A program made the translations under genes and the position numbers. Under the pieces are notes generated by a model. The model saw only the letters and a program-made list of their open reading frames with translations, ran no database searches and was not told the DNA's origin. A DNA stretch of 64,000 nt from Escherichia coli (GTDB taxonomy: Bacteria; Pseudomonadota; Gammaproteobacteria; Enterobacterales; Enterobacteriaceae): NCBI RefSeq assembly GCF_011045215.1, contig NZ_CP049201.1. One strand, 5' to 3'. Position 1 is the stretch's first letter. The number at the start of each line of letters is the position of its first letter. This document shows, piece after piece, positions 9,708-30,576 of this stretch.

Positions 9708-11058
9708 AAACCGTGCTCCGCGTCATTCGGAAAATGCCATACAGTACCAGGGCGATAACCGGCACCAGACCAATGGCGATGATATTGCCGTTGAAGATTT
9801 CCAGCAGCCAGAAGCGGAACGGGTTACCGCCATCAAGGAAACTGGAAACCTGGCCGCTGGAGCCTTCGGCAAATTTGAAGTTAACGTCTTTCGCCATGCC
9901 GGTAATAAACGGTGCGATTTTAGTCGCAATCCACAGGTCGGCAATAATCACCGGGATCGCCGCCAGAACGGTGCGGAAAATATTGCCACGGCTGGCTAAA
10001 GCAATCATCGACGCCATTACCGCCAGGTTGGCAAGGTCGCCAAGCGGCAGGACTTCATTACCTGGGAGGACAAACGCGATAAAGACCGAGATTGGCGTTA
10101 GCAGCAGGGCGGTGGAGATAATCGCCGGATTACCTACGGCAACGGCGATATCCAGTCCGATATAGAGATCGTCACGGTCAGGGTATTTGGCATTGAGATA
10201 CTTTTTAATGGCTTCAGACAGCGGTAATAAACCTTCCATCAGGATGCGAACCATGCGTGGCAGGATGAACATCACACCGCCAATGCTGATGCCAAGCAGC
10301 AACACTTTTTTGAAATCGTATCCTGCAATCACGCCGAGCAGTATGCCCAGAATAGTGCCAACCATCATCGGTTCGCCGAAGATGCCAAACTTTTTCTGTA
10401 CGGTTTCCGGGTCGATATGAATACGATTGAGGCCGGGGATATGGTCGATGATTTTGTCGACCAGCAGACCGACCGGGAAGAACACCACCGAAGAGAGCGT
10501 CGGCAATGAGATCCCTTCCAGTCCAAAGTATTTTTGTACCAGTGGCGCAGACCAGTCGGCGAGTTTAAGTACTACCACCGCAGCAATCGCCGCCGCCAGC
10601 AAACCAAAGAACAGGCTGCCGGTGCTGTAATAAACCAACGTACCAGCAAGGGCAAAATGCCAGTAGTTCCACATATCTACGTCAACGGTACGGGTTTTAT
10701 TTAACGCCAGCATCGCCACGTTAATCAGAATGGTCAGGGGAATAACAAACGGGGCAATTGGCGAACCCCATGTAATAGCGGAAAGCGGCGGCCAGCCTAA
10801 ATCTACCACCGGTAAATTAATTCCGGTGCGTTCAACCATCGCCTGGGCCGCTGGCCCGACATTGCTGGTCAGAATATCGAAAATGGCATAAATACCGACA
10901 AAACCAATGCCGACTGTTAATGACGAACGTAAGGCTTTAGCGGGTTTTACTTTAAAACAGAGAGCAAGAATAAATAACACCAACGGCAACATTACCGTCG
11001 GGCCAAATCCCAATATATATTGCACAATATTATAGAGGGTATGCGCGATATCGTTCAT
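9700..11058 (-). CDS. PTS EIIC permease, galactitol (GatC)-type
   Basis: Polytopic membrane protein with GatC-like blocks. Start placed at the ATG (MNDIAH...) that sits 7 bp after an AAGAGG ribosome-binding site; the ORF track extends 10 codons further upstream to 11088. Confidence 0.8.
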   Translation of the reverse strand: MNDIAHTLYNIVQYILGFGPTVMLPLVLFILALCFKVKPAKALRSSLTVGIGFVGIYAIFDILTSNVGPAAQAMVERTGINLPVVDLGWPPLSAITWGSPIAPFVIPLTILINVAMLALNKTRTVDVDMWNYWHFALAGTLVYYSTGSLFFGLLAAAIAAVVVLKLADWSAPLVQKYFGLEGISLPTLSSVVFFPVGLLVDKIIDHIPGLNRIHIDPETVQKKFGIFGEPMMVGTILGILLGVIAGYDFKKVLLLGISIGGVMFILPRMVRILMEGLLPLSEAIKKYLNAKYPDRDDLYIGLDIAVAVGNPAIISTALLLTPISVFIAFVLPGNEVLPLGDLANLAVMASMIALASRGNIFRTVLAAIPVIIADLWIATKIAPFITGMAKDVNFKFAEGSSGQVSSFLDGGNPFRFWLLEIFNGNIIAIGLVPVIALVLYGIFRMTRSTVYA

Positions 11059-11134
11059 AATAAACCTCTTTTTCAGGCGAGAGCGCACCTCGCGTTAGCG
11101 CCTGATGGAGTGGGTTGAAATTAATTATTATTAA

Positions 11135-11416
11135 TTAATTTTTAAGGATCGAAACAATTTGCGCCAGTACTTTCTCTTCGCCAATACCGGTAATAATCGG
11201 CAAGCCGTTAACTACCGGGACGTCGAGTTCATAAGGCACTTTAGTCGTTGAGACTACCAGTGCTACGCCATCAGTATTTCCAGGTAAAGAGGCAACGTTG
11301 GTTTGGGAATAATTGACGTTAAGACCGTGCTCTTTACAATATTCCATGACTTTTTCTGTTACCGCCGTGGATGTGGCAATACCCGTGGCGCAGACAAATA
11401 AAATGGTTTGACTCAT
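11135..11416 (-). CDS. PTS EIIB component, GatB-type
   Basis: 93-aa ORF with N-terminal phospho-Cys motif (FVCATGIATS). Confidence 0.8.
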   Translation of the reverse strand: MSQTILFVCATGIATSTAVTEKVMEYCKEHGLNVNYSQTNVASLPGNTDGVALVVSTTKVPYELDVPVVNGLPIITGIGEEKVLAQIVSILKN

Positions 11417-11886
11417 ATTTCACCTCGTTCTTTCATTTTGTTTAAGATTACTGTGTGTATTTCTGTTGTTTCCATCGCAAGCAGGGCTTGCATAAAGGGC
11501 GTATCCTGAATCATTTCCATAATCCAGCCCAGGGCATTTAATTGTTTATTACTTTCGCTTAAGGCGAGCAAAAAAATCACCCTGACAGGTACGGGGTCAG
11601 GATCGCCGCCCATATCGGCAAACTCTACCGATTCCGGCAGGATGCCGACGGCAATTGCATTGTGCCTGACATGTTTATGGTCCGTGTGCGGAATAGCGAC
11701 GCACGGTGGTTCGGTAGGCAGCCCCGTTGGGTACGTCGCCTCACGTTTCAGTACGTGATCGGCAAAATCAGGGACGACCAGCTCGGCGGCAACCAACGGT
11801 TGCGCTAACTGACGGATGATCTGTTCAACGCTTAACCCTGCCGGAAGTCGTTGAATATAATTTTCCTGAAAATGTATGCCTTGCAT
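11413..11886 (-). CDS. PTS EIIA component (type 2; mannitol/fructose/galactitol family)
   Basis: 157-aa ORF; active-site His context (AIPHTD); ATGA overlap with the EIIB gene. Confidence 0.8.
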   Translation of the reverse strand: MQGIHFQENYIQRLPAGLSVEQIIRQLAQPLVAAELVVPDFADHVLKREATYPTGLPTEPPCVAIPHTDHKHVRHNAIAVGILPESVEFADMGGDPDPVPVRVIFLLALSESNKQLNALGWIMEMIQDTPFMQALLAMETTEIHTVILNKMKERGEI

Positions 11887-11910
11887 TTTATTCCTCTTAA
11901 AAAAGTGTAC

Positions 11911-12666
11911 TTAACTCACTTCCCGCCGTTGCAGTACGGTGCCAAGATAATATTTATTTCCTTTTAACCAGACGTTGCCAAACTCAATGGGTAATCCTCG
12001 GGAGAAAAAGACTAACTGCTCCAGATGCAAAACGGGTGCGTCTTCACTGATATCTAAAAAATGACCACGTTCATTACCAATTAATCGCGCGGCATAGCGA
12101 CTTTCCGAGTAACGAATTTTTCTTTGCGACAAACTTTCTATTGTTGGAAATAAATTGTGTTGATTAAAATCGATTTCCGCAATACCAGGGCATAGCTCAA
12201 TATTGATACGGTTCTCTATCAGCATCGCTTTTTCATCACCAATTGAGCGTAAGCGTTCAAGGTAAAGAATATCCTGACCGGGCGTTATTCTTAATTTCTC
12301 TGCCACATAACGATTAGCCGGTTCAATCCGTGACGTAATAACTTCAGTGGTAAAATGTATTTTCTGGCTTTCCAGCGATTCCGCGAATGACAATAATCCT
12401 TCACCTAACGGATATGCCACGTTCTCTTTTTTGACAAATGTTCCCTTACCCTGGACCTGTATTAACACGCCTTCTTTTACCAGTTGGGCGACCGCTTTTT
12501 TAACGGTTCCCCGACTCACTTCCAGCATATCCATAATCTGGTATTCCGAAGGAATGCGATCGTCTTCCACCAGATCTCCGGTATAAATACTTTCTCTTAT
12601 CCACTCCACCACTTGTTGATAGAGCGGTATTTGTGACGACTTACTTAATGATTTCATGGCGCGCAC
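11911..12666 (-). CDS. GntR/HutC-family transcriptional regulator (winged-helix plus UTRA effector domain)
   Basis: 251-aa ORF; N-terminal GntR-type HTH (SEYQIMDMLEVSRGTVKKAVAQLVKEGVL) and UTRA-like C-terminal domain; first gene of the PTS operon. Confidence 0.8.
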   Translation of the reverse strand: MRAMKSLSKSSQIPLYQQVVEWIRESIYTGDLVEDDRIPSEYQIMDMLEVSRGTVKKAVAQLVKEGVLIQVQGKGTFVKKENVAYPLGEGLLSFAESLESQKIHFTTEVITSRIEPANRYVAEKLRITPGQDILYLERLRSIGDEKAMLIENRINIELCPGIAEIDFNQHNLFPTIESLSQRKIRYSESRYAARLIGNERGHFLDISEDAPVLHLEQLVFFSRGLPIEFGNVWLKGNKYYLGTVLQRREVS

Positions 12667-12680
12667 CTGAACATTTACAG

Positions 12681-12704
12681 TTGTCTATGGACAATCATGG
12701 ACAA
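12681..12704 (-). promoter_or_regulatory. Candidate operator of the GntR-family regulator
   Basis: TTGTC-tatg-GACAA inverted repeat plus a third GGACAA half-site (ttgtctatggacaatcatggacaa), 15-38 bp upstream of the regulator start. Confidence 0.45.
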
Positions 12705-12821
12705 CTTCAAGCGTATAGTAGGTGAACGGGAGAAAAAGAGGATCGAAGCGTCTCACATTTTGAGGGACCAAATCGTGATCAAAAAAATGTGACGTGAGTC
12801 GATATTTGTCAGAAGTTTACT

Positions 12822-12845
12822 GCGCCGTAAGGAAATAACGGCGCG
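12822..12845 (-). terminator. Hairpin just downstream of nikR (candidate terminator)
   Basis: Inverted repeat CGCCGT / ACGGCG with 9-nt loop immediately after the nikR stop; weak U-tract. Confidence 0.35.
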
Positions 12846-12855
12846 TTGGTAGGTG

Positions 12856-15659
<2,804 letters not shown>

Positions 15660-15663
<4 letters not shown>

Positions 15664-16604
15664 GCGTGCGCTCCTTCATGACGACGAATGCGCGGGTCCA
15701 GCGCGGCGTTGAGCAAATCGACAATCAAATTACAGACCACAAAAACCACCACCATCATCAGCGTAAAGCACTGGATCACCGGATAGTCACGGTTAAAAAT
15801 CGCCGACACCGCATAGCGCCCGACGCCAGGCCAGGCAAAGATGTTTTCGATAATCATCGTCCCGCCAATCAGTTCGCCAATGTGCATCCCCACGGCGGTG
15901 ATCATCGGCAGCGAGGCATTGCGCAGGATGTGGCGACGTTCGGTCTGTTTGTCGTTCAGGCCGCGCAGACGCGCCCAGGTGACGTGACGCTGACCGGCGA
16001 CGTCCAGCATACTGGCGCGCAGCAGCCGTGCGTTAATCGCCAGCGACATAAAGGCAATGGAAACCGCAGGCAAAATGATGTGCTGCCAGCCGCCGTAGCC
16101 CATCGCGGGTAGCCATTGCAGATACACCGAAAACGCCATCACCAGTAAAAATGCCAGCCAGAAGTTAGGCATCGACACGCCAAGAAACGCGATGAAACGT
16201 ACGGCGAAATCCGGCAGACGGTCACGATGGCGCGCCGCCCAGATACCGAGCGGTACGGAAGTGAGCAGAATTAATACCAGCGCCGCACCTGCAAGTTCCA
16301 GCGTGGCGGGCAGGAAGTTCAGCATATCGTCCAGTACCGGGCGTTGGCTGGCGAATGAGATACCAAAGTCAAGATGCAGCGCCTTCCACAACCAGGTGCC
16401 GTACTGGACGTACAGCGGCTGATCCAGTCCCAGCATGGAGCGGGTAGAGGCCAGCATCTCCGGCGTCGGCGGCAGGTTAGACAGACGCAAATAATCGAGC
16501 GCCGGGTCGCCGGTACCGAGGCGCAGCATCAGAAAAATGATCACCGAGGCGGCGAGCACCATCGGGATCAGCAGCAGAAAGCGGCGTAATACGTAACGCA
16601 ACAT
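15660..16604 (-). CDS. nikB: Nickel ABC transporter permease
   Basis: 314-aa polytopic ORF; overlaps nikC and nikA. Confidence 0.9.
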
Positions 16605-18178
16605 TAAGGTTTCACCGGTTTAATCTGTTCGAACGGAATTTCGGTGGCGATCGGCGCGTAGGGGATGTTACCCAGCTCCGGTTTTGATACCACCATCATT
16701 GAGATGTAACTGATAGGCAGATAAACCGCCTCGTCATGCAGACGGGTCAGAATGTCGCGATACAGTGCCTGACGTTGTGCTTCGTCATGGGTCGCCAGCA
16801 CTTCGCCGATCTCTTTATCAATCAGCGGCTTGTCGGCTAATCCTTGCTGTGCCTGGAAGTCAGCGTGCGACGGTACGCGCATTGAACTCAGGAAGGCGTG
16901 TGGATCGTATGGCGCGCCCCAGGTGCGGTGGAAAATCATGCCAAAACGACCGTCGCGCTGACGAGCATAGATACTGCTCTCTTCTTCGCCAATCAGCGAG
17001 ACATCTGCGCCAATCTGGCGCATATCAGCCTGAATGATTTCCGCCATCGATTTGCTTAACGCATCGGTGCCGATGAACGACAGTTCAATGCGCAGCGGCT
17101 GACCATTTTTCTCGCGGATGTCTTTGCCCGCAGGCAGCGTCCAACCGGCTTTTTCCAGCAACGCTTTCGCTTTCTGCGGATCGTACTGGCGCGGTTTCAG
17201 GCCGAGATTAGCGTAAGGCACAGAAGGGGCAAACAGGGTGTCGGCGACCTGCTGGGTGCCATATAACGCGTTATCAATCAGCGATTTTTTGTTTACCGCG
17301 TAATTAAGAGCTTCACGTACTGCCAGCTCGTTGGTGGGGGCTTTGGCGGTATTGAGCGCCAGCATCACGGTTTCGATCGGCTGTGACAGTTGGGTGTGGT
17401 AAGCCGGATTCTGGCTAAAGCGGGCGAAGGTATCGAGCGGTAATAACCCTTCGTTTCCGTACAGCAGGTCGATATCGCCAGTTTCAAACGCTACCGCGCG
17501 GGTCGTCGGGTCCGGGATGACGTTAAAAGTGATCTTCTTAATCGCCGGCTTTTCGCCCCAGTAGTTTTCGTTACGGACGAAGACATCGTACTGATTCAGT
17601 TTCGATTCCTGCAAAACCCACGGCCCGGTGCCAATCGGCGCTTTAATCCCGTTCATGGTTTCATGGTTTTTAAACTGCGAGGGGGCGATAAAGCGGAAAG
17701 GGCGCGGCAGGGCCAGTTCTTGCAGGAAAGGATAGTAGGCGCTTTTCAGGGTGATTTGCAGCTCTGTTTTACTGAGTGCTTTGACATCAACAATCTGGTT
17801 TGCCAGCTCCAGCCAGGCGTGACGTTGACGGTTATCGAGCACTGCGCGGAAGTTTTCTGCCGCCGCCTCTGCATCAAACGGTTCGCCGTTAGAGAATTTC
17901 ACGTCATCACGCAGGGTGAAGGTCCAGGTTTTACCATCTTCTGAATGAGTCCAGCTTTTTGCCAGCCACGGGATCACCGAACCATCAGCCTGATATTTCA
18001 CCAGCGGTTCATAAACCATGCTCTGGGCGAACATCTGGTTAGGCGTGTAAAGGTGCGGGTTTAGTGGCCCGACATTCACCGGCCAGGCGGTGGTGATTTC
18101 ATCTGGTGCAGCGGCATGGACGATAAAAGACGCACAAGCCAGCAGCGCAAATAGAGTGCGGCGGAGTGTGGAGAGCAT
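16604..18178 (-). CDS. nikA: Periplasmic nickel-binding protein
   Basis: 524-aa ORF with signal peptide and family 5 solute-binding fold. Confidence 0.9.
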
Positions 18179-18215
18179 GGTAACCCCAATGGATTAAAAT
18201 AGATGGCGGAAATAA

Positions 18216-18243
18216 GTATGACGATTTTAAGTATTCGTCATAC
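18216..18243 (-). promoter_or_regulatory. NikR operator in the nikA promoter
   Basis: GTATGA-N16-TCATAC read directly (gtatgacgattttaagtattcgtcatac), about 40 bp upstream of the nikA start. Confidence 0.8.
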
Positions 18244-18288
18244 TGATTACCTGTTCTGGATCAATAGATGGGCAGTCGGGTGGGCGGA

Positions 18289-18876
18289 TCAGTTAACTGA
18301 ATCGATCCATTGCACACTGTCGGCGGTGAGCGTAAAGGGAGTAGGGGTGCAGATCGCCAGGCTTAAATTTTCTAGCTGACAATGGCTGACTGACAGCGAG
18401 GAGTGATAGGTGCTGTCTACGCTGACGATTTGCCAGGCGCTGCCACCACGCTGTTTAACGATGGCTTCTTTGCGCGTCCAGATGCGCCAGAACATTTCCA
18501 GTTGCTGATCAGGATGCACGGCGTCCATCTCAGCGTGTTCCCCGAGGCTGAATACGGCGTTCGCCAGCCAGCGCCAGTTGGCGCGCGGGCGAATCACTTC
18601 GATATCGCAGCCGACTTCGCCTTCATCACTCAACAGCAGAGCGATATCGTCACCGCTATGGCTTAAGTTGAACCATAGCGGCGTTTCCGGCGCGAATGCA
18701 GGTTTGCCTTGTTCGCCATAGATGATCTCCGGTAGCGGGGAAAGCGTGTGCGAAAGCAATGCACGCCCCGCCAGCCAGCGTTCGCGTCGTGGACCTTGCG
18801 GTGCTTGCTCGCGTAAACCCGGTGGCAGTGGAGCTGCGCTTAAGGTCGAAACTTTCCCCAGAACTATCCGATACAT
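18289..18876 (-). CDS. acpT: 4'-phosphopantetheinyl transferase AcpT
   Basis: 195-aa product starting MYRIVLGK (the ORF-track extension to 18996 is probably spurious). Its start codon lies 1 bp after the stop of the last ketosynthase gene of the upstream cluster. Confidence 0.85.
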   Translation of the reverse strand: MYRIVLGKVSTLSAAPLPPGLREQAPQGPRRERWLAGRALLSHTLSPLPEIIYGEQGKPAFAPETPLWFNLSHSGDDIALLLSDEGEVGCDIEVIRPRANWRWLANAVFSLGEHAEMDAVHPDQQLEMFWRIWTRKEAIVKQRGGSAWQIVSVDSTYHSSLSVSHCQLENLSLAICTPTPFTLTADSVQWIDSVN

Positions 18877-18877
18877 A

Positions 18878-20107
18878 TCAGGGCCAACGTTTAATGATGA
18901 TGGATGTATTAATGCCGCCAAAGGCAAAGTTGTTACTCTGCAAAAACTCACAATCAACCTTGCGGGCTTCATGCATGATGTAATCCAGCGCGCCACAATT
19001 CGGGTCTGGTTTATTCAGGTTTAGCGTAGGCGCAAACCAACCTTCGCGCATCATTTGCAGACTCATCCAGGCTTCGAGCGCGCCACAGGCACCAAGCGTA
19101 TGACCAAAATAACTTTTCAGCGAGGAGAGCGGCACATTATCACCGTAAATGGTTGCTGTCGCCAGACTTTCTGCCATATCACCGCGATCGGTCGCCGTAC
19201 CATGCGCTGAAATATAGCCGATATCTTGTGCGCTTAACCCGGCGATTTTCAGCGATTGCTCCATACAATACTGCATGGTTTCGCTCTGCGGCTGGGTAAT
19301 ATGTGCCGCGTCGCAGTTAGTCGCAAAGCCGACGATTTCACCGTAAATGGTCGCGCCGCGCGCTTTGGCGTGCTCCAGTTCTTCGAGAATGAGCGTACCT
19401 GCGCCTTCACCAATCACCAGCCCGTCGCGGTTTTCATCGAACGGTGAAGGTGTGGTTTTCGGCGCATCATTGTGCTGGCTGGTGGCGAAAAGCGTATCAA
19501 ATACCGCTGCTTCTGAAGGACATAACTCTTCGGCACCACCAGCAACCATCACCGTTTGATAACCGTGGCGAATGGCTTCCCACGCATAACCGATTGCCTG
19601 GCTGCCGGAAGTACAGGCGCTGGAGGTTGGGATCACCCGCCCGCGCAGGCCGAAAAAGAGGCCAGTATTAACGGCGGTGGTGTGCGGCATCATCTGCACA
19701 TAGGTGGTGCCAGTGATGTTATTGGTGTGCTTTTCCGTCAGCATGGTGGCGAACTCGCTTACCGGGCCGGTACTGCCGGTCGATGAACCGTACGCAATGC
19801 CCGTTTCGCCGCTGGTTAATATCGGATCGCCAATCAACCCTGCCTGCTCTAACGCCAGCTCGCTGGCACGGGTCGACATTTGCGACACGCGGCCCATCGC
19901 ACGGATACGCTTGCGGGTGTAGTGCTCCGGTAGCGTGAAATCATCAACAGGCGCGCCAAGCAGGGTGTGCAGCCCATCGTAGACCTGCCACTCCGGCATT
20001 TTGCGCACCGCATTTTCATATGCCAGTAAGCGTGCAGAAACGTCCTGCCAGTTTTCACCAAAGGCAGTCACGCCGCCCATTCCTGTAATCACTACGCGAC
20101 GTGTCAT
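18878..20107 (-). CDS. Beta-ketoacyl-ACP synthase (KAS I/II type), last biosynthetic gene of the APE-type cluster
   Basis: 409 aa; Cys-His-His triad contexts (SSACTSG, HGTAT, GHTLGA). By cluster order this would be apeR in the Xenorhabdus nomenclature as I recall it (unverified). Confidence 0.85.
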   Translation of the reverse strand: MTRRVVITGMGGVTAFGENWQDVSARLLAYENAVRKMPEWQVYDGLHTLLGAPVDDFTLPEHYTRKRIRAMGRVSQMSTRASELALEQAGLIGDPILTSGETGIAYGSSTGSTGPVSEFATMLTEKHTNNITGTTYVQMMPHTTAVNTGLFFGLRGRVIPTSSACTSGSQAIGYAWEAIRHGYQTVMVAGGAEELCPSEAAVFDTLFATSQHNDAPKTTPSPFDENRDGLVIGEGAGTLILEELEHAKARGATIYGEIVGFATNCDAAHITQPQSETMQYCMEQSLKIAGLSAQDIGYISAHGTATDRGDMAESLATATIYGDNVPLSSLKSYFGHTLGACGALEAWMSLQMMREGWFAPTLNLNKPDPNCGALDYIMHEARKVDCEFLQSNNFAFGGINTSIIIKRWP

Positions 20108-20835
20108 AACATCCCTCCGTTGATGGAAATAACCTGGCGGGTGACGTAACCCGCAATATCAGACATTAAATAACTGGCAAGCCCGGCAACTTCTTCCGCC
20201 TGGCCCATACGTTTCATGGGGATCATCGACATTGCCTCTTTCAGAGCGCTCTCTTCCATTTCGATCATCCCGGTATCAATAAGCCCCGGCGCGATGCAGT
20301 TGACGGTGATTTTGCGCTTCGCGAGTTCGATAGCCAGCGCTTTTGTTGCGCCGATAATTCCGGCTTTGGCAGCGCTGTAATTCACCTGGCCGCGATTGCC
20401 CATTACGCCGGAAACCGAGGATAGCGTGATGATGCGCCCACCCTGGCGTGCGCCGATCATCGGCATAATGCACGGCTGAATGACGTTGTAGAAACTGTCG
20501 AGGTTGGTGTGGATCACCGCATCCCAGTCGTCATCGCTTAAAGCCGGAAAAGCGGCATCGCGGGCGATCCCGGCGTTACTGACCACGCCGTACCAGGCAC
20601 CGTGTTGCGCGATCTCATGCTCCAGCACTTCCCGACACTGTTCGCGGTTTGCGACGTCGAAACTGAGCAAACGCCCGTTACCCCCATTGGCGACAATGGC
20701 ATTCAGCGTTTCCTGAGCGCCTGTGGCGTCACGGTGATAGTGAACGCCAATGTTAAAGCCGTCTGCCGCCAGTTGGCAGGCGATGGCGCGACCAATGCCT
20801 TTGCTGGCACCAGTAACCAGAACTGAACGACTCAT
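20104..20835 (-). CDS. 3-oxoacyl-ACP reductase (SDR, FabG-like)
   Basis: 243 aa; TGASKGIGRAIA cofactor motif, NAG, YSAAK catalytic motif. Would be apeQ by order (unverified). Confidence 0.85.
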   Translation of the reverse strand: MSRSVLVTGASKGIGRAIACQLAADGFNIGVHYHRDATGAQETLNAIVANGGNGRLLSFDVANREQCREVLEHEIAQHGAWYGVVSNAGIARDAAFPALSDDDWDAVIHTNLDSFYNVIQPCIMPMIGARQGGRIITLSSVSGVMGNRGQVNYSAAKAGIIGATKALAIELAKRKITVNCIAPGLIDTGMIEMEESALKEAMSMIPMKRMGQAEEVAGLASYLMSDIAGYVTRQVISINGGML

Positions 20836-21299
20836 CAGGACGCTCCTTGTTGAAACAGGGTGGTAAGTTCTTCCGCGGTCGGCTGGAAGGTGTTAATGCG
20901 GCCCGTCGCCTCGCCGTCGTTGATGCTGCACTCAAAACTGCCGAAGCGATCGTCCTGCATCAGCAGTTTGACGGTAATGGTCAGCGTCTGGCCTGCGGGC
21001 AGAATGCCAGTGGTGCAAAGCAATTCACGCGCGCCCAGTATCATCCCTAACTCAATACTGTTTTTGCCTTGCTGGTGGCGATGCCAGCCAGACCAGACGC
21101 CGACGGTTTGCGCCATCAGTTCAAGGGCAAACCAGCCAGGGAGATTGCCGTCCGGGTCGAGAAACGGTGCCAGTACGCCACTGGGCGAAACCGTCACGCG
21201 GCACACCGCGCTGTCATCGCTGACGCTCACCACGTCTTCCAGCAGTAACATGGGCGCGTCGTGGGGCAGATAAGCGCCGGGGGATAAATAGTGGCTCAC
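20835..21299 (-). CDS. Hot-dog fold 3-hydroxyacyl-ACP dehydratase (FabA/FabZ-like)
   Basis: 154 aa, hot-dog-fold size and composition; sits between KR and KS genes. Would be apeP by order (unverified). Confidence 0.7.
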   Translation of the reverse strand: MSHYLSPGAYLPHDAPMLLLEDVVSVSDDSAVCRVTVSPSGVLAPFLDPDGNLPGWFALELMAQTVGVWSGWHRHQQGKNSIELGMILGARELLCTTGILPAGQTLTITVKLLMQDDRFGSFECSINDGEATGRINTFQPTAEELTTLFQQGAS

Positions 21300-22474
21300 G
21301 AAACCCTCCCGAGCAGAATGCTGGCGTTATTGCCGCCAAAGGCGAAGGAATTGGACAGGATCACCGGACGTGCCAGCGGCTGTGGTTTTTCGATAATGCC
21401 GCACGGTGGCAGCGTGGGATCGCACGGCGACAGGCTGAAGTCCTGAGCGGGCAGCGGTAAATCACGCTGTAAAATCAACATGCTGATTGCCGCCTCGGTA
21501 ATGCCCGCCGCGCCCAGCGTGTGGCCGGTCAAATGTTTGGTGGAACTGCACGGTACGCGTTCGCCAAACAGGGCGTTAACCACCATTGATTCAATCTGAT
21601 CGTTGAGTTGTGTGGCGGTGCCGTGCAGGTTGATATAGCCGACGTCATCTGGCGTAAGCTGTGCATCGTTCAGCGCCTGATTAATAGCGCGGATCGCTCC
21701 TTCGCCCTGCGGATGCGGGGCTGAAATATGGTAAGCGTCGCTCGATTCACCAACGCCCAGCAACGCGATGGGCTGCGGTTCCCGGGTCAGCAGCATTAGC
21801 CCCGCCCCTTCACCAATGGTGATACCTGCGCGGTCACGACCAAACGGCTGACATAAGGTTGGCGACAGCGATTCGAGGCTGTGAAAACCGTTAATCGGCA
21901 TCCGGCTCAGGGTGTCTGCGCCACCCACAATGGCGGCATCGACCAGCCCCGCTTCGATAAGCCTGCGCCCGCTGATTATCGCTCTGGCGCTGGAAGAGCA
22001 GGCGGTTGAAAGGGTATAGGCCGGGCCGTCGAGCGCCAGCCAGTGGCTGAGAAAACGCGACGGATCGCCGAGTTCCTGTTGCGCGTAGTGCCATGTGGTG
22101 CTCGGCTGCCCGTGGGTGCGCAGGTTAACGTGCGTGTCGCCTTCATGCAGGCCGGAGGTGCTGGTGCCAAGTACAATCGCGATGCGCTCGCGACCATATT
22201 TCGCGATAGCGTCATCAACCTGCGGCTGGATCTGCGCCAGCGCCGCCAGCAGGATCTGATTGTTGCGCGAGCGGTGCGCAGCGAATTTTTCCGGGATAAG
22301 CGGAAGCTCGCCATCCACGCCAGCCAGGACCGCCTGCGGATGCCCCTGCAACCAGCCTGCGCGCGGGCGCATGCCGGGAGCAACACCGCGAGTCAGGTTG
22401 GTTGCGATTTCGTCAAGGTTATTTCCCAGGGCGTTGATCATGCCGACGGCGGAAATATAAATCATATCAGTCAC
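21296..22474 (-). CDS. Beta-ketoacyl synthase (elongating KS)
   Basis: 392 aa; active-site contexts STACSSS, HGTATQ, GHTLGA. Would be apeO by order (unverified). Confidence 0.85.
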   Translation of the reverse strand: MTDMIYISAVGMINALGNNLDEIATNLTRGVAPGMRPRAGWLQGHPQAVLAGVDGELPLIPEKFAAHRSRNNQILLAALAQIQPQVDDAIAKYGRERIAIVLGTSTSGLHEGDTHVNLRTHGQPSTTWHYAQQELGDPSRFLSHWLALDGPAYTLSTACSSSARAIISGRRLIEAGLVDAAIVGGADTLSRMPINGFHSLESLSPTLCQPFGRDRAGITIGEGAGLMLLTREPQPIALLGVGESSDAYHISAPHPQGEGAIRAINQALNDAQLTPDDVGYINLHGTATQLNDQIESMVVNALFGERVPCSSTKHLTGHTLGAAGITEAAISMLILQRDLPLPAQDFSLSPCDPTLPPCGIIEKPQPLARPVILSNSFAFGGNNASILLGRVS

Positions 22475-23051
22475 CTAAGTATTGAATGGTGATGTGGTAT
22501 TTAAAGACATGCTGCTCAATGCTGATTGGCACGCGTTTTCCCTGGCGATTCAGATAGGTGATTTCCGTGACCAGTTTGCCGCTGGCGTTACGCAGCTCGC
22601 GTTTGTCACCGTTGTCGCGAAGTGTCCATCCTGCGGGAAGTTGCGGTTGCCAGGCGCTAATCGGCCAGTGGCTGAGCATCACGTCAGCCAGTACCTGACT
22701 TGCGGGCGGTAACTGTGGGACGACGATGGATTGCTCGGCGCGTAGCCCTTGCGCATCGTAGGTCACCAGAAACAGGCGAATGCCGACCGACGACAGCCCG
22801 GCAAGGGTGATTTTCTGATCGTCGGCGTTAAGCATTACTAGCAGCGACTGGGTGTTGCCGTTGAAGCTGCCGGTTAACAGTTGCTGGGAATTGACGGCGG
22901 GTGAAATCCCCGGTGCCGGCAGCGTGATGCGCGTGCCAGGTTGCAGCCACGCCTGCGGGCGGCCTTCCTGTTCCGGTTGCGAGTGGCTACAGCCGGTGAG
23001 GATAAGCGTAGCGGTCAGGGCGAACGCTCGCCAGAAGGTAGGTTTGATCAT
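22467..23051 (-). CDS. Lipoprotein (DUF3261-like)
   Basis: 194 aa; signal peptide with lipobox (LTGC). Confidence 0.7.
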   Translation of the reverse strand: MIKPTFWRAFALTATLILTGCSHSQPEQEGRPQAWLQPGTRITLPAPGISPAVNSQQLLTGSFNGNTQSLLVMLNADDQKITLAGLSSVGIRLFLVTYDAQGLRAEQSIVVPQLPPASQVLADVMLSHWPISAWQPQLPAGWTLRDNGDKRELRNASGKLVTEITYLNRQGKRVPISIEQHVFKYHITIQYLGD

Positions 23052-25366
23052 TTTTTTGTTCTCTTTTTATCGGGCATAGCCAGCGGCGAAAGCAGGAAGG
23101 CGGTGAAAATACCGCTCACCAGCACAATGCCAAAACTGCTGATGGCCTGGGTGGCGCTGAATACCAGCATTCCCAGCGTCAGCAAGGTGGTGAGCATTGC
23201 CAGTGTGATCGCCAGTAGCGAAGTTAACGGCGTACCGCGCGGATTACTGAAAAACAACGTGTAGTTGATACCGATGCCAAGTACCAGCACCAGCGCCAGC
23301 AGCGAAAAGAGATTCACCGCCTGCCCGCTCATCGCCAGCACCGCCAGACCACAGCCCAGCGAAAGCACCGAAGGCACCAGGCTGATAAGCCCTTTGCGCC
23401 AGCCGAGACGGGCCACTGCGCCGCAGGCAATCACTGCCAGCGCCACCAGCAACAAGCCGGTTAAGACGTAGCGGTAAAGTGCGAACAATTCATCAAAGGT
23501 GCTTTTGCGATCAACCCAGGCAATGCCGCAAGGGTAATATGTGGCGATTTCCTGCATCAACGCGCTACTTTTAACCCCTTCAACCGGCACCAGTACGCCG
23601 CTTTCGCCATTTTCCAGCGTCAGCCACAGCAGACGCCAGCCTTCACTGGCGGGGCTTGCCAGCCATTCATCAACGTTCACTGGCATGGCGTTGAGATCTG
23701 GTTTCACCGCCGTCAGCCCGGCGTTTTGCAGTGCTTTTGTTACCGTCGGGGCCGCCGTTTTCAGCAGGTCTAAATCTTCCTCCTGTCGCGCCAGAGAGTT
23801 CAGCGGAATAGTGCGGTAATTGCTGATAAGACCGTCTTTTTTCGCCTTCTCCAGCGAGGAGGTAAATGTCTCCAGCCGTCCCAATGTTTGCTGTGGGGAG
23901 TCGCCGTAAACCACAAACCATTTTTGATCGACGCTTTGCCCGGTCAGGGCGGTAATGGCTTTCTCCTGGGTCAGAATATGCTGCGGTAGCGCCTGTAACT
24001 GCGAGATATCGTCATCGACGCGCAGCATTGACATCCCCGCCAGCGAAAACAGCGCCAGCGCGACGGGCAGACCCAGCGACAGTTTTTTATTACGCCGCCA
24101 CGCTGCCAGCCAGCGTAGCATCAGCGCCATCGCCGGAACCGGACGCACCGGCAGGCCACGGCACAGCCACGGATGCCAGAACAGGACGGTCAGACAAGAG
24201 GCGCTCAACCCGACGGCGGCAAAAATCGCCATCTGGCGAATGCCTGGGAAGGGGGCGAGCATCATAATCAGATACGCCGCCACGGTGGTGAGCAGCGCCA
24301 GTAGCAAGGCATTGCGTACTTTCGCCAGGCTTTGCCACGGCGAAACGTCGTTGCCGTGCACCATCCGCTCGGTGAGATAATAGAGCGTGTAGTCAGCGGA
24401 AATGCCGATAACGCTCATGCTCATTACCAGCGTCATCAGGTGTAATTCACCGAAAATCAATAAAGTGGCGACCGTTCCCGCCAGCGCGCCGATGCCGATG
24501 GAAATCACGCAAAGCAGCAACGGGCGCAAAGAGCGGAACACCGCCACAATCAGCAATATCACCCCCAGCAGCGTTGCCACGCCCAGGGTTGAGATATCCT
24601 GCTTCGCCTGTTGGCTGGCGTAATCGCTGTAAAACACCGTGCCGCGCGAAAGCAGCTGCGCCTGCGGGTAACGCGTTTTCAGATCCTTTTCCAGCGTATT
24701 CAGGGTCGTGATGAGCTGGTGGGTTTGCTGCATATCAAACGACGATCCCGCCAGTTCACCGTGCAGCAGATACCAGTAGTTGCCCTGGGGATCCTGCGTC
24801 ACCAGCCAGCCGTCCATCAGCCGCAAACGCTGGCCGTTTTTCGCCATCGCCAGCTGCGAGCCGCGCATTAACATCAGCGGATCGTTTTGCAGCTCCTTGC
24901 CGCTTACCCCGGAGAACGCAGAATAAAGCTGGGAGAGGATCCACTGCGCCTGCGCTTCGCCGCCGTTTTGCAGGCGCGCGCGGGTGTCGGGGTCAATCAG
25001 GCCGTTGCGGTGCTGCCAGAAAAACGCTCCCCACGCTTGCTGGCTGGCGGCATCCATTGGCCCTTTAACGTCGCCGAGCGCAGCGGATTTTTGCAGCAGC
25101 GTCAGCCACTCCTGAGCGACCAAAGGATTAGCCTCTTTACCGGGGCTGACCAGCCACACCAGTTGGCGGTCAAGACGCTGCATAAAGCCGTCATTCAGCG
25201 CCGGAGGAATATCGCCCATCGTCTGTTTGGGTAACATAGCCAGCACGCTACTGTTCAGCCGTGATTGCGGCAGCAGGATCAGCAACGCCGCCGCCATGAC
25301 CAGGCAGACTAGCCCCCATAACAGCGCGGGGCGTTTACTGGGCGGCAAAACGTTGGCGTTCGTCAT
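23048..25366 (-). CDS. MMPL/RND-superfamily membrane exporter
   Basis: 772 aa; two blocks of transmembrane helices each following an extracytoplasmic domain, typical of MMPL-type lipid exporters. Confidence 0.75.
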   Translation of the reverse strand: MTNANVLPPSKRPALLWGLVCLVMAAALLILLPQSRLNSSVLAMLPKQTMGDIPPALNDGFMQRLDRQLVWLVSPGKEANPLVAQEWLTLLQKSAALGDVKGPMDAASQQAWGAFFWQHRNGLIDPDTRARLQNGGEAQAQWILSQLYSAFSGVSGKELQNDPLMLMRGSQLAMAKNGQRLRLMDGWLVTQDPQGNYWYLLHGELAGSSFDMQQTHQLITTLNTLEKDLKTRYPQAQLLSRGTVFYSDYASQQAKQDISTLGVATLLGVILLIVAVFRSLRPLLLCVISIGIGALAGTVATLLIFGELHLMTLVMSMSVIGISADYTLYYLTERMVHGNDVSPWQSLAKVRNALLLALLTTVAAYLIMMLAPFPGIRQMAIFAAVGLSASCLTVLFWHPWLCRGLPVRPVPAMALMLRWLAAWRRNKKLSLGLPVALALFSLAGMSMLRVDDDISQLQALPQHILTQEKAITALTGQSVDQKWFVVYGDSPQQTLGRLETFTSSLEKAKKDGLISNYRTIPLNSLARQEEDLDLLKTAAPTVTKALQNAGLTAVKPDLNAMPVNVDEWLASPASEGWRLLWLTLENGESGVLVPVEGVKSSALMQEIATYYPCGIAWVDRKSTFDELFALYRYVLTGLLLVALAVIACGAVARLGWRKGLISLVPSVLSLGCGLAVLAMSGQAVNLFSLLALVLVLGIGINYTLFFSNPRGTPLTSLLAITLAMLTTLLTLGMLVFSATQAISSFGIVLVSGIFTAFLLSPLAMPDKKRTKK

Positions 25367-25940
25367 CGGTCAGTTGCGCTGGCGTCAGTTGATGTTGGGT
25401 AAGAGCAATATCGGTGCGATCGCCCTGTTTATCATTAAGTTGAATGCTCTCCAGATAGGTTTTCCCGGCGAGATCGATGGTGTTGAAAATTTTATCCAGC
25501 GGCGTGGTGGTCGGCGTCAGGCGCAGCGTCCAGCGGCCTTCGCCTTTGTCAGCAAATTCGACGCGGAAGTTTTGTTCCAGCACTTTGCGATCGGCCTGGA
25601 ACAGCGCGCGCAGCAGGTGGTTAAACTGGAACATCTGCGGGTTGTTTTCTGCCGTGATGATTTGCGGCGGCTGACCGTTGATCACCTGCACCATGCGTTT
25701 ATCGTCCAGTAATAGCTGCATGGGGAATGGTGAGGTTTGATCCCACAACAGCCCCTGGTCGCGGGCGATCAACATCTGGCCCTGAGATCGCAGCGGCTGC
25801 GGCAGATCTTTAATCGTCCGGGTTTGATCGAAATGGGCGCGGATCACCGGTTGTTCGGTAAAGCGTTGCTGAAGATCGTCCAGGGTCAGGGCGCTCACAA
25901 ACGGGCTAATCAGCAGCGCCAGCAGCGGTAAAAATTTCAT
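25335..25940 (-). CDS. LolA-like outer-membrane lipoprotein carrier
   Basis: 201 aa with signal peptide; LolA-family length and composition; 32-bp overlap with the MMPL gene. Confidence 0.65.
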   Translation of the reverse strand: MKFLPLLALLISPFVSALTLDDLQQRFTEQPVIRAHFDQTRTIKDLPQPLRSQGQMLIARDQGLLWDQTSPFPMQLLLDDKRMVQVINGQPPQIITAENNPQMFQFNHLLRALFQADRKVLEQNFRVEFADKGEGRWTLRLTPTTTPLDKIFNTIDLAGKTYLESIQLNDKQGDRTDIALTQHQLTPAQLTDDERQRFAAQ

Positions 25941-26359
25941 GGTTTGACTCCCATGCGTTCAAACAGAATATCGGGGCTGACAAAGCACAGTTCGCGACTT
26001 TGCTCGTCGACCGCGACCTGAATGGTGTATCCGGTGGTGGCGCGTTTGCCCGTTTCGGCATCGAAAATCTGATAGCCAATCCGCAGACGGTTTTCGAACT
26101 CTTCGATATGCGCACGCACGCGGATGCGTTGCTCAAAGGTGAGGGCGTGGCGATATTTCACCCGCGCATCGACCACTGGCCACAAATAACCGGACTCTTT
26201 CATCTGCCGATAGCCGTAATTGAACTGGTTGAGCAGCGCCTCGCGAGCCACTTCAAAGTAGCGAAAATAGTTACCGTGCCAGGCCACGCCCATCATATCG
26301 ACGTCGTGAAAGGGAATGGTCAGCTCGACTTCAGCGGTAAATCGGGGATCGTTAAGCAC
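25937..26359 (-). CDS. Acyl-CoA/acyl-ACP thioesterase (4HBT / YbgC-like hot-dog)
   Basis: 140 aa; 4HBT-type N-terminal motif (IPFHDVDMMGVAWHGNYFRYFE). Confidence 0.8.
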   Translation of the reverse strand: MLNDPRFTAEVELTIPFHDVDMMGVAWHGNYFRYFEVAREALLNQFNYGYRQMKESGYLWPVVDARVKYRHALTFEQRIRVRAHIEEFENRLRIGYQIFDAETGKRATTGYTIQVAVDEQSRELCFVSPDILFERMGVKP

Positions 26360-26362
26360 CCT

Positions 26363-28039
26363 TTACTCCTTGTCCTGAATTTCCGGCAGTTGCCAGAAAT
26401 CGAAAAAATTAAACCAGTCGAGGGGCGACTGGAGCGCGTAATGTTCCAGACGCGCGGCGTAGTGGTCGATAGCGTTTTGCAGCGCCTGCTGGCGTTCGCC
26501 ACGCGGCAGTTGCAGCGGGTCGGCAAAGCTTTCGCAGTGAATATGCAGCTTGCCGTGCTGGCGTAGGGCGAAAATCAGATTCACCGGGCAGCGCAAAATA
26601 GACGCGAGAATAAACGGTCCCTGTGGGAAAGGCGCAGGCTGGCCCATAAACGAACTCCAGCAGACGCGCCAGTCGCCGCCGCGTTGCGGGGTGACGGCGA
26701 TACGGTCACCGACAATCGCCACCCATTCCCCGTTATCCAGCTTCTCTTTCAGCAGGATGGCGGTTTCTGGGCCGATATCTGTTACCGGCATCAGGTTAAT
26801 GCCTGCCTGAGGAGCCATCTCCTGCATTATCTGTTTAAAGCGTTGGGCGTTTTCGCTAAACACCAGCGCGTTAATGGTTTTGTAGCCCTGAATTTTTGCC
26901 AGCGCCCGGCACACTTCCACATCGCCAAGATGCGAGGCCAGCAGCAATTTGCCGCGCGGATCGCGGACGTCAAGCGCCGCTTCTGCGCCTGGCGCAAACA
27001 GCACATCACGCCCCAGTTGTAGCTCGCCGCGCCAGCTGGCGATTTTGTCGAGCATGGCATTACCGAAACGTAGAAAGTGCTGATAGCTGTTGAGTTTTGC
27101 CGCCTGTGGTTGATGCTGTCGTACACGGGCGAGCCAGTCTTGCGACGCTTTGCGCGCACGAGAAGCAGTGAGCCAGTAGACGCCCACCACCGGGTAAAGC
27201 AGCGCGCTAAACGCCGTTCTTCCCAGCAGACGCCAGACCAGCAGCATCAGGCGCATTCCCCATAACCCTTTCACCTCACTCTGCCGCGCCCAGTGGCTGG
27301 AAGAACGGCGCATCAGCAGTGAAGGAATACGCGGCAACATGCCGAAAAATAGACGCGTGTGCATGAGCGAGATGCGGACGTTATCTTTCAGGGCATCAAA
27401 ATGCGAAAGCCCGTCCAGCGGATAGGTGACGCGGGTCGGCACGAAATAACTGGTGTTTCCCTGCCAGTAGAGGCGCACCATCACTTCGGTGTCGAAATCC
27501 ATCCGCTTGCCGATGGTGGCGTGTTTTGCCAGTTGCAGCGTTGGCGCAACCGGATAAACGCGAAAGCCGCACATGCTGTCTTTCAGTTGCAGGGAGAGCG
27601 TTTCGATCCATACCCAGACGTGAGTGACCCAGCGCCCATACAGCCGTGAGCGGGGGATGGAGTCATCGTAAATTGGCTGGCCGGAGATCAACGCCGCAGG
27701 GTGTTGTTCAGCGAGTGCCAGCAGTTTGGGGATATCTTCAATCGCATGTTGACCATCAGCATCTACCTGCACCGCATGGCTGAACCCCGCGTCTGCCGCT
27801 GCCTGTAAGCCGCGCATCACCGCCGCGCCTTTACCTGCGTTTTCTGCCAGGCGGATTAAGGTCACGCCAGGCTGTTCGCTAATCAGATTATCCAGTTGCT
27901 GTTGCGTGGCGGCATCGCTGCCGTCGTCCACCACAATACAAGGCAGATTAAATGGCTTAAGACGCGCCAGCACGCCCGGCATCATCGCGCCGTGGTTGTA
28001 GCAGGGGATCAACACGCAGGGAGAAAAGTTTACCGACAT
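26363..28039 (-). CDS. Two-domain protein: N-terminal family 2 glycosyltransferase fused to a C-terminal acyltransferase-like domain
   Basis: 558 aa; GT2 motifs (VVDDGSD, DxD-type VQVDADGQH) in the first ~230 aa, followed by membrane-associated and acyltransferase-like segments. Confidence 0.7.
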   Translation of the reverse strand: MSVNFSPCVLIPCYNHGAMMPGVLARLKPFNLPCIVVDDGSDAATQQQLDNLISEQPGVTLIRLAENAGKGAAVMRGLQAAADAGFSHAVQVDADGQHAIEDIPKLLALAEQHPAALISGQPIYDDSIPRSRLYGRWVTHVWVWIETLSLQLKDSMCGFRVYPVAPTLQLAKHATIGKRMDFDTEVMVRLYWQGNTSYFVPTRVTYPLDGLSHFDALKDNVRISLMHTRLFFGMLPRIPSLLMRRSSSHWARQSEVKGLWGMRLMLLVWRLLGRTAFSALLYPVVGVYWLTASRARKASQDWLARVRQHQPQAAKLNSYQHFLRFGNAMLDKIASWRGELQLGRDVLFAPGAEAALDVRDPRGKLLLASHLGDVEVCRALAKIQGYKTINALVFSENAQRFKQIMQEMAPQAGINLMPVTDIGPETAILLKEKLDNGEWVAIVGDRIAVTPQRGGDWRVCWSSFMGQPAPFPQGPFILASILRCPVNLIFALRQHGKLHIHCESFADPLQLPRGERQQALQNAIDHYAARLEHYALQSPLDWFNFFDFWQLPEIQDKE

Positions 28040-28413
28040 AGGCGGATCTTCCCGCTACTGGCGGTGTGGCGGGCGTCACCGTCGTGACGCTGATAGCTAA
28101 AGCTCAGAATCTGGCGATCTTCCTGCCAGTTAAGCGTGAGCGTGACGCGGTTTTCCGGCAGCAACGGAGACTGGAATTTTATGTTCTGAATGGAGTGAAA
28201 ACGCCAGCCAGGCGCGAGCAGGGCAAGCGCGTAACTCATGGCCCAGTCGATTTGCGCAACTCCTGGGAGTAATGGTTGCACGGCAAAATGGCCGCGAAAC
28301 CAGAACAGATCTGCCCTGAGATGCAAAACAATCTCAAGGTGATTCGCTTGTGCCTGATGGCGCTCGATTTCATGGGGCTTCATGAAATAACTCCTGTAAT
28401 TGCGCATAGACAC
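28030..28413 (-). CDS. FabZ/FabA-like hot-dog dehydratase
   Basis: 127 aa; FabZ-type motif (FRGHFAVQPLLPGV). The start may lie at an internal Met (MKPHE...). Confidence 0.75.
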   Translation of the reverse strand: MSMRNYRSYFMKPHEIERHQAQANHLEIVLHLRADLFWFRGHFAVQPLLPGVAQIDWAMSYALALLAPGWRFHSIQNIKFQSPLLPENRVTLTLNWQEDRQILSFSYQRHDGDARHTASSGKIRLCR

Positions 28414-29731
28414 GCTTGTTCATACTGTTTACTGGCATTTCATCAATAACGCGCCAGTAACGCGGAATGGCAACCGGCTCCAGCATCGGGCGCAGTAATC
28501 GCCGCCAGGCTATTTCCTGGCTATGCCCGCCGCCGTGCTGCCATTGCAGGCGAGCTTCGTCATCCAGCACCAGCAAAACGCCAATGCACTGACGCCCGCC
28601 GCGTGTAACAGGAACTGCCGCCGCCTCGCGAATACCGTCCAGTGCCAGCAGACGTTGTTCCACTTCCTGGAGTGAAATGCGTTTTTCTTCAATTTTAACG
28701 ATGCGTCCGCGACGCCCCATCAGATGGAACTGGCCGTCTTCGCTAAACTGTAAGATATCGTCGAGTAACAGGCCGTTATCTTCCGCCATCAGCGGTGAAA
28801 AGAGACGAAAAGAATCACCTTCGGCCTGGAACTGCATACCTGGGAGGGGTAGCCAGCGGCGTTGCTCTTGTTCGCGGTAGCGCCAGGCGATGACGCCGGT
28901 TTCCGTGCTGCCGTAGATTTCATCAGGCCAGACGCGCAGCCAGCTTGCGGTGTGTTGTACATCCTGCCACGGCAGCTCACCGCCAGCAGAGAGAAGCACC
29001 TGAACGGGTGGCGGAGAAAGCTGGGTATCCAGGCGCTTCAAAAATGCCGGGCTGCTGATGAAGATATAGCGATGCTGATGACTCAACGCGGCAAACTGTT
29101 CGACATACCAGAGCATGGCGGCGTGCAGCGGTAATCCCAACGCCATGGGCAGGAAAACGCGAAAAGTCAGGCCGTACAAATGCTGCGGCAATACGGAACC
29201 GACGACACGACAACCCGCCAGACGTGCGCCTAATCGTTCAGCCAGCAGTTCTGCTTCACGATCCAGCAAATGAACAGGTTTAATCACCCGTTTCGGCTGT
29301 CCCGTGGAACCGGAGGTAAACAGCTCGATAAAAGCCTCTGGCGCTATAGCGGAAAAGGTGAAGGATTGTGTCGCGATTTGTGGAGAACTTGCTACCAACA
29401 GCAATGAACCTTGCCAGTTAAGTTCGCTGTCGCTAAGCACACCATCAAAAAGTTCACGTTGCTCGTTAAGCTGGATAACACGGTTATGCCCCGGAAGCAC
29501 CGGCGTTTTTCCGGCGTGTAGCGTGGCGAGCAGGGCAACGATAAACAGATAGCTGTTCTCAAAGCACAGCGCCCAGCGTTCACCTGGCTGTTGCTGCAAG
29601 CGGCAGATAAGTTGCGCGACATCGTGACGCAAATCGCCCAGCGTCCAGGTGCTTTCGTCCAGCCACGCAATGGGCGTGTCATCAGGGCGTGGCGCAGTCA
29701 GCCAGCGTGCAAGCGGTAAGGTCTGCTTCAT
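28370..29731 (-). CDS. AMP-dependent synthetase/ligase (adenylating enzyme; candidate aryl starter-unit activator)
   Basis: AMP-binding motif TSGSTGQPK. Start placed at the Met that forms an ATGA overlap with the upstream gene's stop (plus strand 29728-29731 reads tcat); the ORF track extends to 29770. Confidence 0.8.
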   Translation of the reverse strand: MKQTLPLARWLTAPRPDDTPIAWLDESTWTLGDLRHDVAQLICRLQQQPGERWALCFENSYLFIVALLATLHAGKTPVLPGHNRVIQLNEQRELFDGVLSDSELNWQGSLLLVASSPQIATQSFTFSAIAPEAFIELFTSGSTGQPKRVIKPVHLLDREAELLAERLGARLAGCRVVGSVLPQHLYGLTFRVFLPMALGLPLHAAMLWYVEQFAALSHQHRYIFISSPAFLKRLDTQLSPPPVQVLLSAGGELPWQDVQHTASWLRVWPDEIYGSTETGVIAWRYREQEQRRWLPLPGMQFQAEGDSFRLFSPLMAEDNGLLLDDILQFSEDGQFHLMGRRGRIVKIEEKRISLQEVEQRLLALDGIREAAAVPVTRGGRQCIGVLLVLDDEARLQWQHGGGHSQEIAWRRLLRPMLEPVAIPRYWRVIDEMPVNSMNKRVYAQLQELFHEAP

Positions 29732-30313: not shown

Positions 30314-30565
30314 TCAGGCTTCTTGTAGCAGGCGTTCTACAGCCTCGACGACATCCTGGACTGTACGCACTGCTTTAAACTCTTCCGGCTTGATTTTCTT
30401 ACCGGTTTTCTTTTGCAGGTGCACAATCATGTCAACGGCGTCGATGCTGTCCAGTTCCAGATCTTCGTACAGGCGCGCTTCAGGTTTGATGTCCTGCGGA
30501 TCGATTTCAAACAGCTTAACCAGCAGGGCTGAGACTTCCTGATAGACGGTTTGTTGTTCTGTCAT
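30314..30565 (-). CDS. Acyl carrier protein
   Basis: 83 aa; phosphopantetheine attachment motif (LELDSIDAVD). Confidence 0.85.
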   Translation of the reverse strand: MTEQQTVYQEVSALLVKLFEIDPQDIKPEARLYEDLELDSIDAVDMIVHLQKKTGKKIKPEEFKAVRTVQDVVEAVERLLQEA

Positions 30566-30576
30566 GATGGCTTTCC

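Follow-up and report, generated by a model that had tools for sequence, protein, structure and literature searches.

The acpT gene as the probable last gene of an intact aryl-polyene cluster in Escherichia coli

The analyzed window, a stretch of 64,000 nucleotides from Escherichia coli, contains an intact 18-gene aryl-polyene (APE) cluster, apeA–apeR, on its minus strand; acpT follows it as the 19th gene, and there are no internal stops in any of the 19 genes. Gene names, roles and the apeA–apeR order are given according to the E. coli aryl-polyene cluster described in PMC8253772. Judging by the ORFs, the family matches and the identity to the Nissle-type cluster, the canonical E. coli-type gene set is present in the canonical order: a ketosynthase/chain-length-factor pair, an initiating ketosynthase, two acyl carrier proteins (ACPs), an adenylating ligase, a ketoreductase, two dehydratases, a methyltransferase, and Lol/MMPL export genes. 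The spacer between yhhT and apeA (33907–34285) is AT-rich, 379 nt in length, and has a hairpin after the yhhT stop. It contains a sigma-70-like site, TTGCCT-17-TATAGT, at 34100–34072, which is a match to the consensus only, and this spacer is likely to be the promoter region of the ape operon. Rfam and tRNA scans over the whole window gave no matches.

The first four genes, apeA (lipoprotein), apeB (FlxJ-family methyltransferase), apeC (chain-length factor) and apeD (lysophospholipid acyltransferase), occupy positions 30809–33906 and were assigned by ORFs, family matches and RefSeq; the ApeC chain-length factor has no catalytic Cys. They are followed by the two ACP genes and, at 26363–30309, by apeG (membrane protein), apeH (adenylating aryl-ACP ligase), apeI (dehydratase) and apeJ (glycosyl/acyltransferase), identified in the same way. 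The next block (22467–26359) includes apeK (thioesterase), apeL (LolA-like), apeM (MMPL/RND transporter) and apeN (DUF3261), ORFs whose product names are the RefSeq names of O157 genes with 98% identity. The elongating ketosynthase apeO (21296–22465) matches NF006618, the dehydratase apeP (20835–21299) gives a weak FabZ match, and the ketoreductase FabG2 gene apeQ (20104–20835) matches TIGR01831; all three have RefSeq O157 homologues. The cluster ends with apeR (18878–20107), a terminal beta-ketoacyl-ACP synthase of 409 aa (NF006587, 778 bits). Its catalytic set is complete, with Cys165, His302 and His336 in the motifs SACTSG, HGTAT and GHTLGA.

The two ACPs are the predicted substrates of AcpT. 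ApeE (30577–30834, minus strand, 85 aa; NF006617, 90.8 bits) has a DSI attachment motif at residues 40–42 with Ser41, and ApeF (30314–30565, minus strand, 83 aa; NF003757, 146 bits) has the same motif at residues 39–41 with Ser40. The CFT073-type product, an outer-membrane aryl-polyene lipid, was shown by heterologous expression of the CFT073 cluster (PMC8253772), and the cluster of the window is predicted to make an aryl-polyene pigment lipid.

The acpT gene (18289–18876, minus strand) encodes an Sfp-type 4′-phosphopantetheinyl transferase (PPTase) of 195 aa. Residues 1–195 of the protein align with positions 1–195 of the NCBIfam NF007676 AcpT equivalog profile with a score of 396 bits (cutoff 174). 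Both sequence signatures of group II PPTases, the metal-binding (G)xD(x)E and W/F-x-x-KE-x-x-K, are present as GCDIE at residues 89–93 and WTRKEAIVK at residues 133–141, and Pfam PF01648 is precomputed for nearly all AcpT homologues. The protein is predicted to transfer phosphopantetheine from CoA to a carrier-protein serine, an activity reported in vitro for the identical EDL933 protein (cited in PMC8253772). Downstream, the 110-nt spacer between acpT and nikA (18179–18288) has no canonical intrinsic terminator; it includes the palindrome GTATGA-N16-TCATAC, which we take to be the NikR operator.

The direct read of the minus strand at the apeR–acpT junction (18874–18880) is ...AAA CGT TGG CCC TGA T ATG TAT CGG..., with the TGA stop of apeR at 18880–18878, a lone T at 18877 and the acpT ATG at 18876–18874. 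A sequence-only reading of the same DNA had reported a phosphopantetheinyl transferase gene, acpT, starting 1 bp after the stop of a terminal ketosynthase gene on the same strand, as well as two cluster ACPs within 30314–30834. The direct read and the ORF listing confirm all of these coordinates, and the profile matches and motifs given above agree with the gene assignments. That reading also called acpT fused to the operon; the 1-nt spacing is right, but the wording is loose, since apeR and acpT are separate ORFs in different frames. In the ORF listing, the acpT frame reaches back to a GTG at 18996. The RefSeq start in O157:H7, K-12 and others is the ATG at 18876, and translation from this ATG gives the full-length match to the AcpT model (1–195 of 195). 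A gap of 1 nt is by itself ordinary within the ape cluster, because from apeC onward neighbouring genes either overlap or lie no more than 11 nt apart.

A consensus scan of positions 16500–21500 revealed no sigma-70-like or terminator-like minus-strand sites at the junction or close to it, where an independent promoter and terminator would have spoken against the co-transcription proposed by the sequence-only reading; the scan is sensitive to near-consensus sigma-70 sites only, and a weak promoter inside apeR could escape it. For acpT, the 20 nt 5′ of the ATG pair with the anti-Shine-Dalgarno sequence at −1.5 kcal/mol at best; the preceding genes apeR, apeQ and apeP reach −10.0, −8.3 and −10.8 kcal/mol, respectively. 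The sequence features that mark operon membership and coupling are thus all found for apeR–acpT: a common strand, a short stop–start distance, no intervening promoter or terminator in the scan, and a weak distal Shine-Dalgarno site. They support the proposal that acpT would be co-transcribed and translationally coupled with the cluster. As for expression data, the EDL933 RpoS transcriptome paper reports seven island genes that are jointly raised in the rpoS mutant; it makes no mention of acpT, and acpT, yhhU and the adjacent Z numbers were not found in its supplements.

According to the proposed mechanism, acpT would share one mRNA with apeA–apeR, and its translation would come mainly from ribosomes that finish apeR at the UGA and, one nucleotide further on, start again at the acpT AUG. 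This reinitiation route is proposed because acpT is essentially without a Shine-Dalgarno sequence, and we consider it reasonably probable as the specific way in which acpT is translated. Such coupling would yield a low supply of AcpT locked to the operon.

The junction was compared across Enterobacterales by taking one genome per species, which gave 80 loci with ApeR at 82–98% identity. An AcpT homologue stands directly after ApeR at 61 of these 80 loci, always with a gap of at most 3 nt. Counted from the homologous ATG, the gap is −1 nt at one locus, +1 at 25, +2 at 31 and +3 at four. At three species junctions, a GTG start with an overlap of −4 was considered and rejected, the homologous ATG at +2 being the better reading. 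The junction is beyond what chance would give, because 61 of the 80 loci keep the gap within −1 to +3 nt. The identity of AcpT at the linked loci goes down to 35–40% (Atlantibacter, Hafnia, Yersinia nurmii and a Citrobacter freundii strain). The nikA gene is absent downstream in 56 of the 61 linked loci and present in five, namely in Escherichia sp. E1V33, Superficieibacter, two Citrobacter amalonaticus and C. sedlakii; therefore, acpT travels with the cluster and not with the nickel operon. At the other 19 loci, no AcpT homologue follows ApeR (Serratia, Edwardsiella, Mangrovibacter, Erwinia, several Pantoea, Brenneria, Xenorhabdus, Winslowiella and two others), and a search of all their ORFs with the AcpT profile HMM found no hidden AcpT-like PPTase within about 4 kb of apeR.

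The weak Shine-Dalgarno site of acpT is also common to these species. The median pairing is −2.3 kcal/mol for acpT and −9.5 kcal/mol for apeR, and sites weaker than −4 kcal/mol make up 89% of the acpT sites versus 1% of the apeR sites. This bears on the possibility that acpT lies on the operon transcript but ribosomes load directly at its weak or non-canonical site, with no termination–reinitiation. A moderate Shine-Dalgarno match of −6.8 kcal/mol in seven of the 61 species would fit such loading, as would the K-12-type genomes, which retain just 19 nt of apeR and keep a selected and presumably translated acpT. However, the prevalence of weak sites at acpT and the gaps, none of which exceeds 3 nt, argue against it, and direct loading seems rather unlikely; termination–reinitiation at the apeR stop is the route that we prefer.

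The region can be compared directly with O-island 138 of the O157:H7 strain EDL933. As in the window, the island and acpT are located between yhhT and nikA, with 18 genes, then acpT, and the junction TGA-T-ATG. Between the stop of yhhT and the start of nikA, the two sequences are 98.2% identical without gaps over 16,107 nt, and there is no difference of substance between them; the arrangement that the sequence-only reading had described as intact is indeed so. The AcpT and ApeE proteins are identical to those of EDL933, and ApeF differs by one residue, A30T. Over the apeR–acpT region, the window is 100% identical to strain SCU-316 and not to an O157 strain. As cited in PMC8253772, De Lay and Cronan (2006, Mol Microbiol 61:232) found that AcpT of EDL933 activates the ApeE and ApeF homologues in vitro and that acpT of K-12 is an orphan. 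The sequence-only reading had referred to this work and had named the two ACPs as natural substrates of AcpT, and both points agree with the account in PMC8253772. The biochemistry carries over from EDL933 because AcpT and ApeE are identical and ApeF is one residue apart.

We consider it very probable that the ape operon has acpT as its last cistron and that AcpT is the enzyme that turns apo-ApeE and apo-ApeF into their holo forms. AcpT would transfer the 4′-phosphopantetheine arm from CoA to the conserved serine in each of the two proteins; without this arm, the ApeH ligase and the ketosynthases would be unable to load or extend the aryl polyene chain. An alternative would be that AcpT is co-located with the cluster yet plays a minor part in vivo, ApeE and ApeF being activated mainly by AcpS or EntD, whereas AcpT has its role elsewhere, for example, in the envelope. 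Three observations point that way: the 19 species loci without an AcpT-like gene within 4 kb of apeR; the purifying selection on orphan acpT described below; and a report that overexpressed acpT suppresses the yejM (lapC) envelope mutant of K-12 (PMC8745692). However, the in vitro activation of the EDL933 homologues by AcpT, as cited in PMC8253772, stands against it, and an AcpT irrelevant to the pathway would hardly account for the tight linkage conserved in 61 species. We regard this alternative as very unlikely and retain AcpT as the probable activating enzyme.

The distribution of the junction within the species was analyzed in 5,426 complete E. coli genomes. The acpT gene is present in 5,425 of them and full-length apeR in 824; apeR is contiguous with acpT in 569. 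A K-12-type scar junction was found in 4,856 genomes, which together with the 569 linked genomes make up exactly the 5,425 acpT-bearing ones. About 4,600 of the 5,426 genomes have no APE cluster anywhere. In about 255 genomes (824 minus 569), Nissle among them, the cluster lies away from acpT, and a Nissle-type downstream junction was detected in 162.

The K-12 orphan (b3475, formerly yhhU) differs from the gene of the window by one non-synonymous and five synonymous substitutions. As in the window, nikA lies downstream, and the 19 nt that precede the ATG show no difference. Unlike the window, MG1655 has the order yhhT, a 54-nt spacer, acpT and nikA, and the 15.6-kb cluster is absent, in agreement with the remark of the sequence-only reading that acpT has no such neighbours in K-12. 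In the K-12-type junction, a filler of 38 nt separates the yhhT stop from the final 19 nt of apeR, which are followed by acpT. These 19 nt, CATTAAACGTTGGCCCTGA (18878–18896 of the window, minus strand), are kept 5′ of acpT as a scar, and in every K-12-type match among the matches listed, homology breaks off at query position 1215. The filler gave no match in the window with up to three mismatches allowed. The Nissle-type apeR ends with the same codons as CATTAAACGTTGGCCCTGA, with two synonymous differences.

It could be supposed that acpT is a resident gene with its own expression signals, beside which an APE island landed by accident in some E. coli. Such an insertion would agree with the presence of acpT in 5,425 genomes and of an adjoining cluster in only 569, with the occurrence of the cluster elsewhere on an integrase-bearing island, and with the upkeep of acpT where there is no cluster. 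However, the 19 nt of apeR in K-12-type genomes are genuine codons, as the Nissle copy demonstrates, and they point to a deletion; in addition, acpT is without a Shine-Dalgarno sequence of its own, and the apeR–acpT junction of at most 3 nt recurs in 61 species, of which 56 lack a downstream nikA. Insertion of the island beside a resident acpT was rejected on account of the scar, and an accident of this kind appears extremely improbable. The K-12 state is a deletion and not an empty insertion site, because CATTAAACGTTGGCCCTGA comprises genuine apeR codons, with which the independent Nissle copy of apeR ends as well. De Lay and Cronan (2006) likewise speak of a deletion in the title of their paper.

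The linked arrangement is taken to be the ancestral one. In most E. coli, including K-12, a single old deletion would have removed the 15.6-kb cluster but spared acpT and the last 19 nt of apeR, and some lineages, e.g., Nissle, would later have regained a cluster on a mobile island without acpT. The latter type is known as the APEEc cluster of uropathogenic CFT073 (Cimermancic 2014; Johnston 2021, PMC8253772) and is represented here by the Nissle-derived SYNB1934. It has the same 18 genes in the same apeA–apeR order as the window, with 90–96% DNA identity; the middle of apeH (about 28484–29484 of the window) is too divergent for megablast alignment. Unlike the cluster of the window, it is located on an integrase-bearing island beside dgcT. 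Its homology to the window extends from inside apeA to the last base of the apeR stop, with no PPTase behind, and the CFT073 cluster is described as having no dedicated PPTase (PMC8253772). Nissle-like lineages would have to rely on the orphan acpT acting in trans. Since the cluster occurs without a neighbouring acpT at 19 of the 80 species loci and in about 255 E. coli genomes, adjacency is not obligatory.

Orphan acpT was compared in five scar genomes (K-12 J53, N96, GPEC1356, p11A and 2013C-3277), all of which have an intact 195-codon ORF and a common scar. The pairwise dN/dS values among them are about 0.05–0.30 at dS up to 0.23, in a sample that is small and with a scar that could have spread by recombination. 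If the scar is identical by descent, the substitutions arose after the deletion, and acpT is therefore under purifying selection without its neighbours. As acpT is evidently expressed and selected where apeR is gone, it must also be expressed by a route other than coupling to apeR. Clusters that were re-acquired and are served in trans may explain this upkeep in part; only about 255 genomes have such a cluster. A second, cluster-independent function of AcpT is a tentative possibility: the roughly 4,600 genomes devoid of the cluster keep acpT intact behind one old scar, and such a function would agree with the genetic connection to the envelope protein YejM/LapC that has been reported.

The association of AcpT with the APE cluster and its two carrier proteins, and the orphan state in K-12, were already published in 2006 and are rediscovered here. 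The conservation of the junction across species may not have been spelled out before and would extend the known fact. Current APE papers describe the cluster as lacking a PPTase, in contrast to the view of acpT as its 19th gene. We propose that the boundaries of the APE cluster in Enterobacteriaceae should take in acpT; its annotation could be changed to that of a conserved gene of the enterobacterial cluster, the 19th. The best-studied E. coli APE cluster, that of the CFT073 type, is an exception and probably depends on the orphan acpT in trans. The linkage also bears on heterologous expression in hosts without acpT and on mutant design.

EntD (enterobactin), ClbA (colibactin) and Sfp (surfactin) are group II PPTases encoded alongside the carrier proteins that they activate. 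AcpT differs from them in that it is shorter (195 aa) and is encoded at the 3′ end of its cluster, at a stop–start junction and without a Shine-Dalgarno sequence. The scores of AcpT on the HetI and AusB models are far under their cutoffs.

In K-12-type genomes, in which the aryl-polyene (APE) cluster is deleted and acpT is kept as an orphan, the yhhT–acpT spacer is 54 nt long (4967–5020 in locus L002 and 6916–6969 in locus L089). It is made up of a 38-nt filler, ATGAGGCGACAAGTGATACGATACGCACTTTCATTTTC, followed by the final 19 nt of apeR, which correspond to window positions 18878–18896. No match to the filler was found within the window with up to three mismatches allowed. The yhhT stop codon also differs between the K-12-type and island-bearing forms (GGA TGA versus GGT TAA).

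Immediately past the yhhT stop in the island-bearing genome (window about 34230–34285), there is a hairpin, ATGGCCAC-N13-GTGGCCAT, with TTTGATTTG after it. The structure resembles a terminator, but its loop exceeds the length accepted by the terminator scan. This hairpin is absent from the K-12-type spacer, and therefore acpT in K-12 may be read through from yhhT. The orphaned acpT genes (421–1008 or 5021–5608 in the scar-type loci L002 and L085–L088) are intact, and comparisons between these genomes gave dN/dS values of 0.05–0.30, with dS up to 0.23, which indicates purifying selection on acpT after the loss of the ape cluster.

On the other side of acpT, no canonical intrinsic terminator was found in the 110-nt acpT–nikA spacer (window 18179–18288); thus, ape operon transcripts might read through into nikABCDE. 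The only strong hairpin of this spacer is the palindrome GTATGA-N16-TCATAC, which we take to be the nikA promoter's NikR operator.

Mutation of rpoS in EDL933 raises the expression of seven genes of O-island 138 (Z4851, Z4852, Z4854, Z4855, Z4857, Z4860, and Z4861) 2- to 6-fold; acpT is not among the genes named in that study (PMC2907692). RpoS therefore controls the cluster negatively, and the cluster acts as a co-regulated unit.

The Nissle/CFT073-type copy of the cluster is located on an integrase-bearing island adjoining dgcT; unlike that of the window, it lacks acpT, its end coinciding exactly with the stop codon of apeR (L003, the Nissle-type locus, 3476–18233 versus window 33642–18878). 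The middle of apeH (window about 28484–29484) gave no megablast alignment between the two copies; the two types of E. coli cluster thus have starter-unit ligases that are mosaic or divergent relative to each other. In O157:H7 Balcarce_14.2, RefSeq marks apeD (acyltransferase; L001 5481–6302) and apeH (AMP-dependent synthetase; L001 7380–8741) as pseudogenes with internal stops, whereas both genes are intact in EDL933 and in the window.

The nikR–yhhJ interval of the window (7048–12666) encodes a GntR regulator, PTS IIA/IIB/IIC, an FGGY kinase, HPr, and a class II aldolase. Its layout matches that of O157:H7 (L001 24454–30063), in which a HicAB pair comes after this block; K-12 presumably has another insert, rhsB, there.
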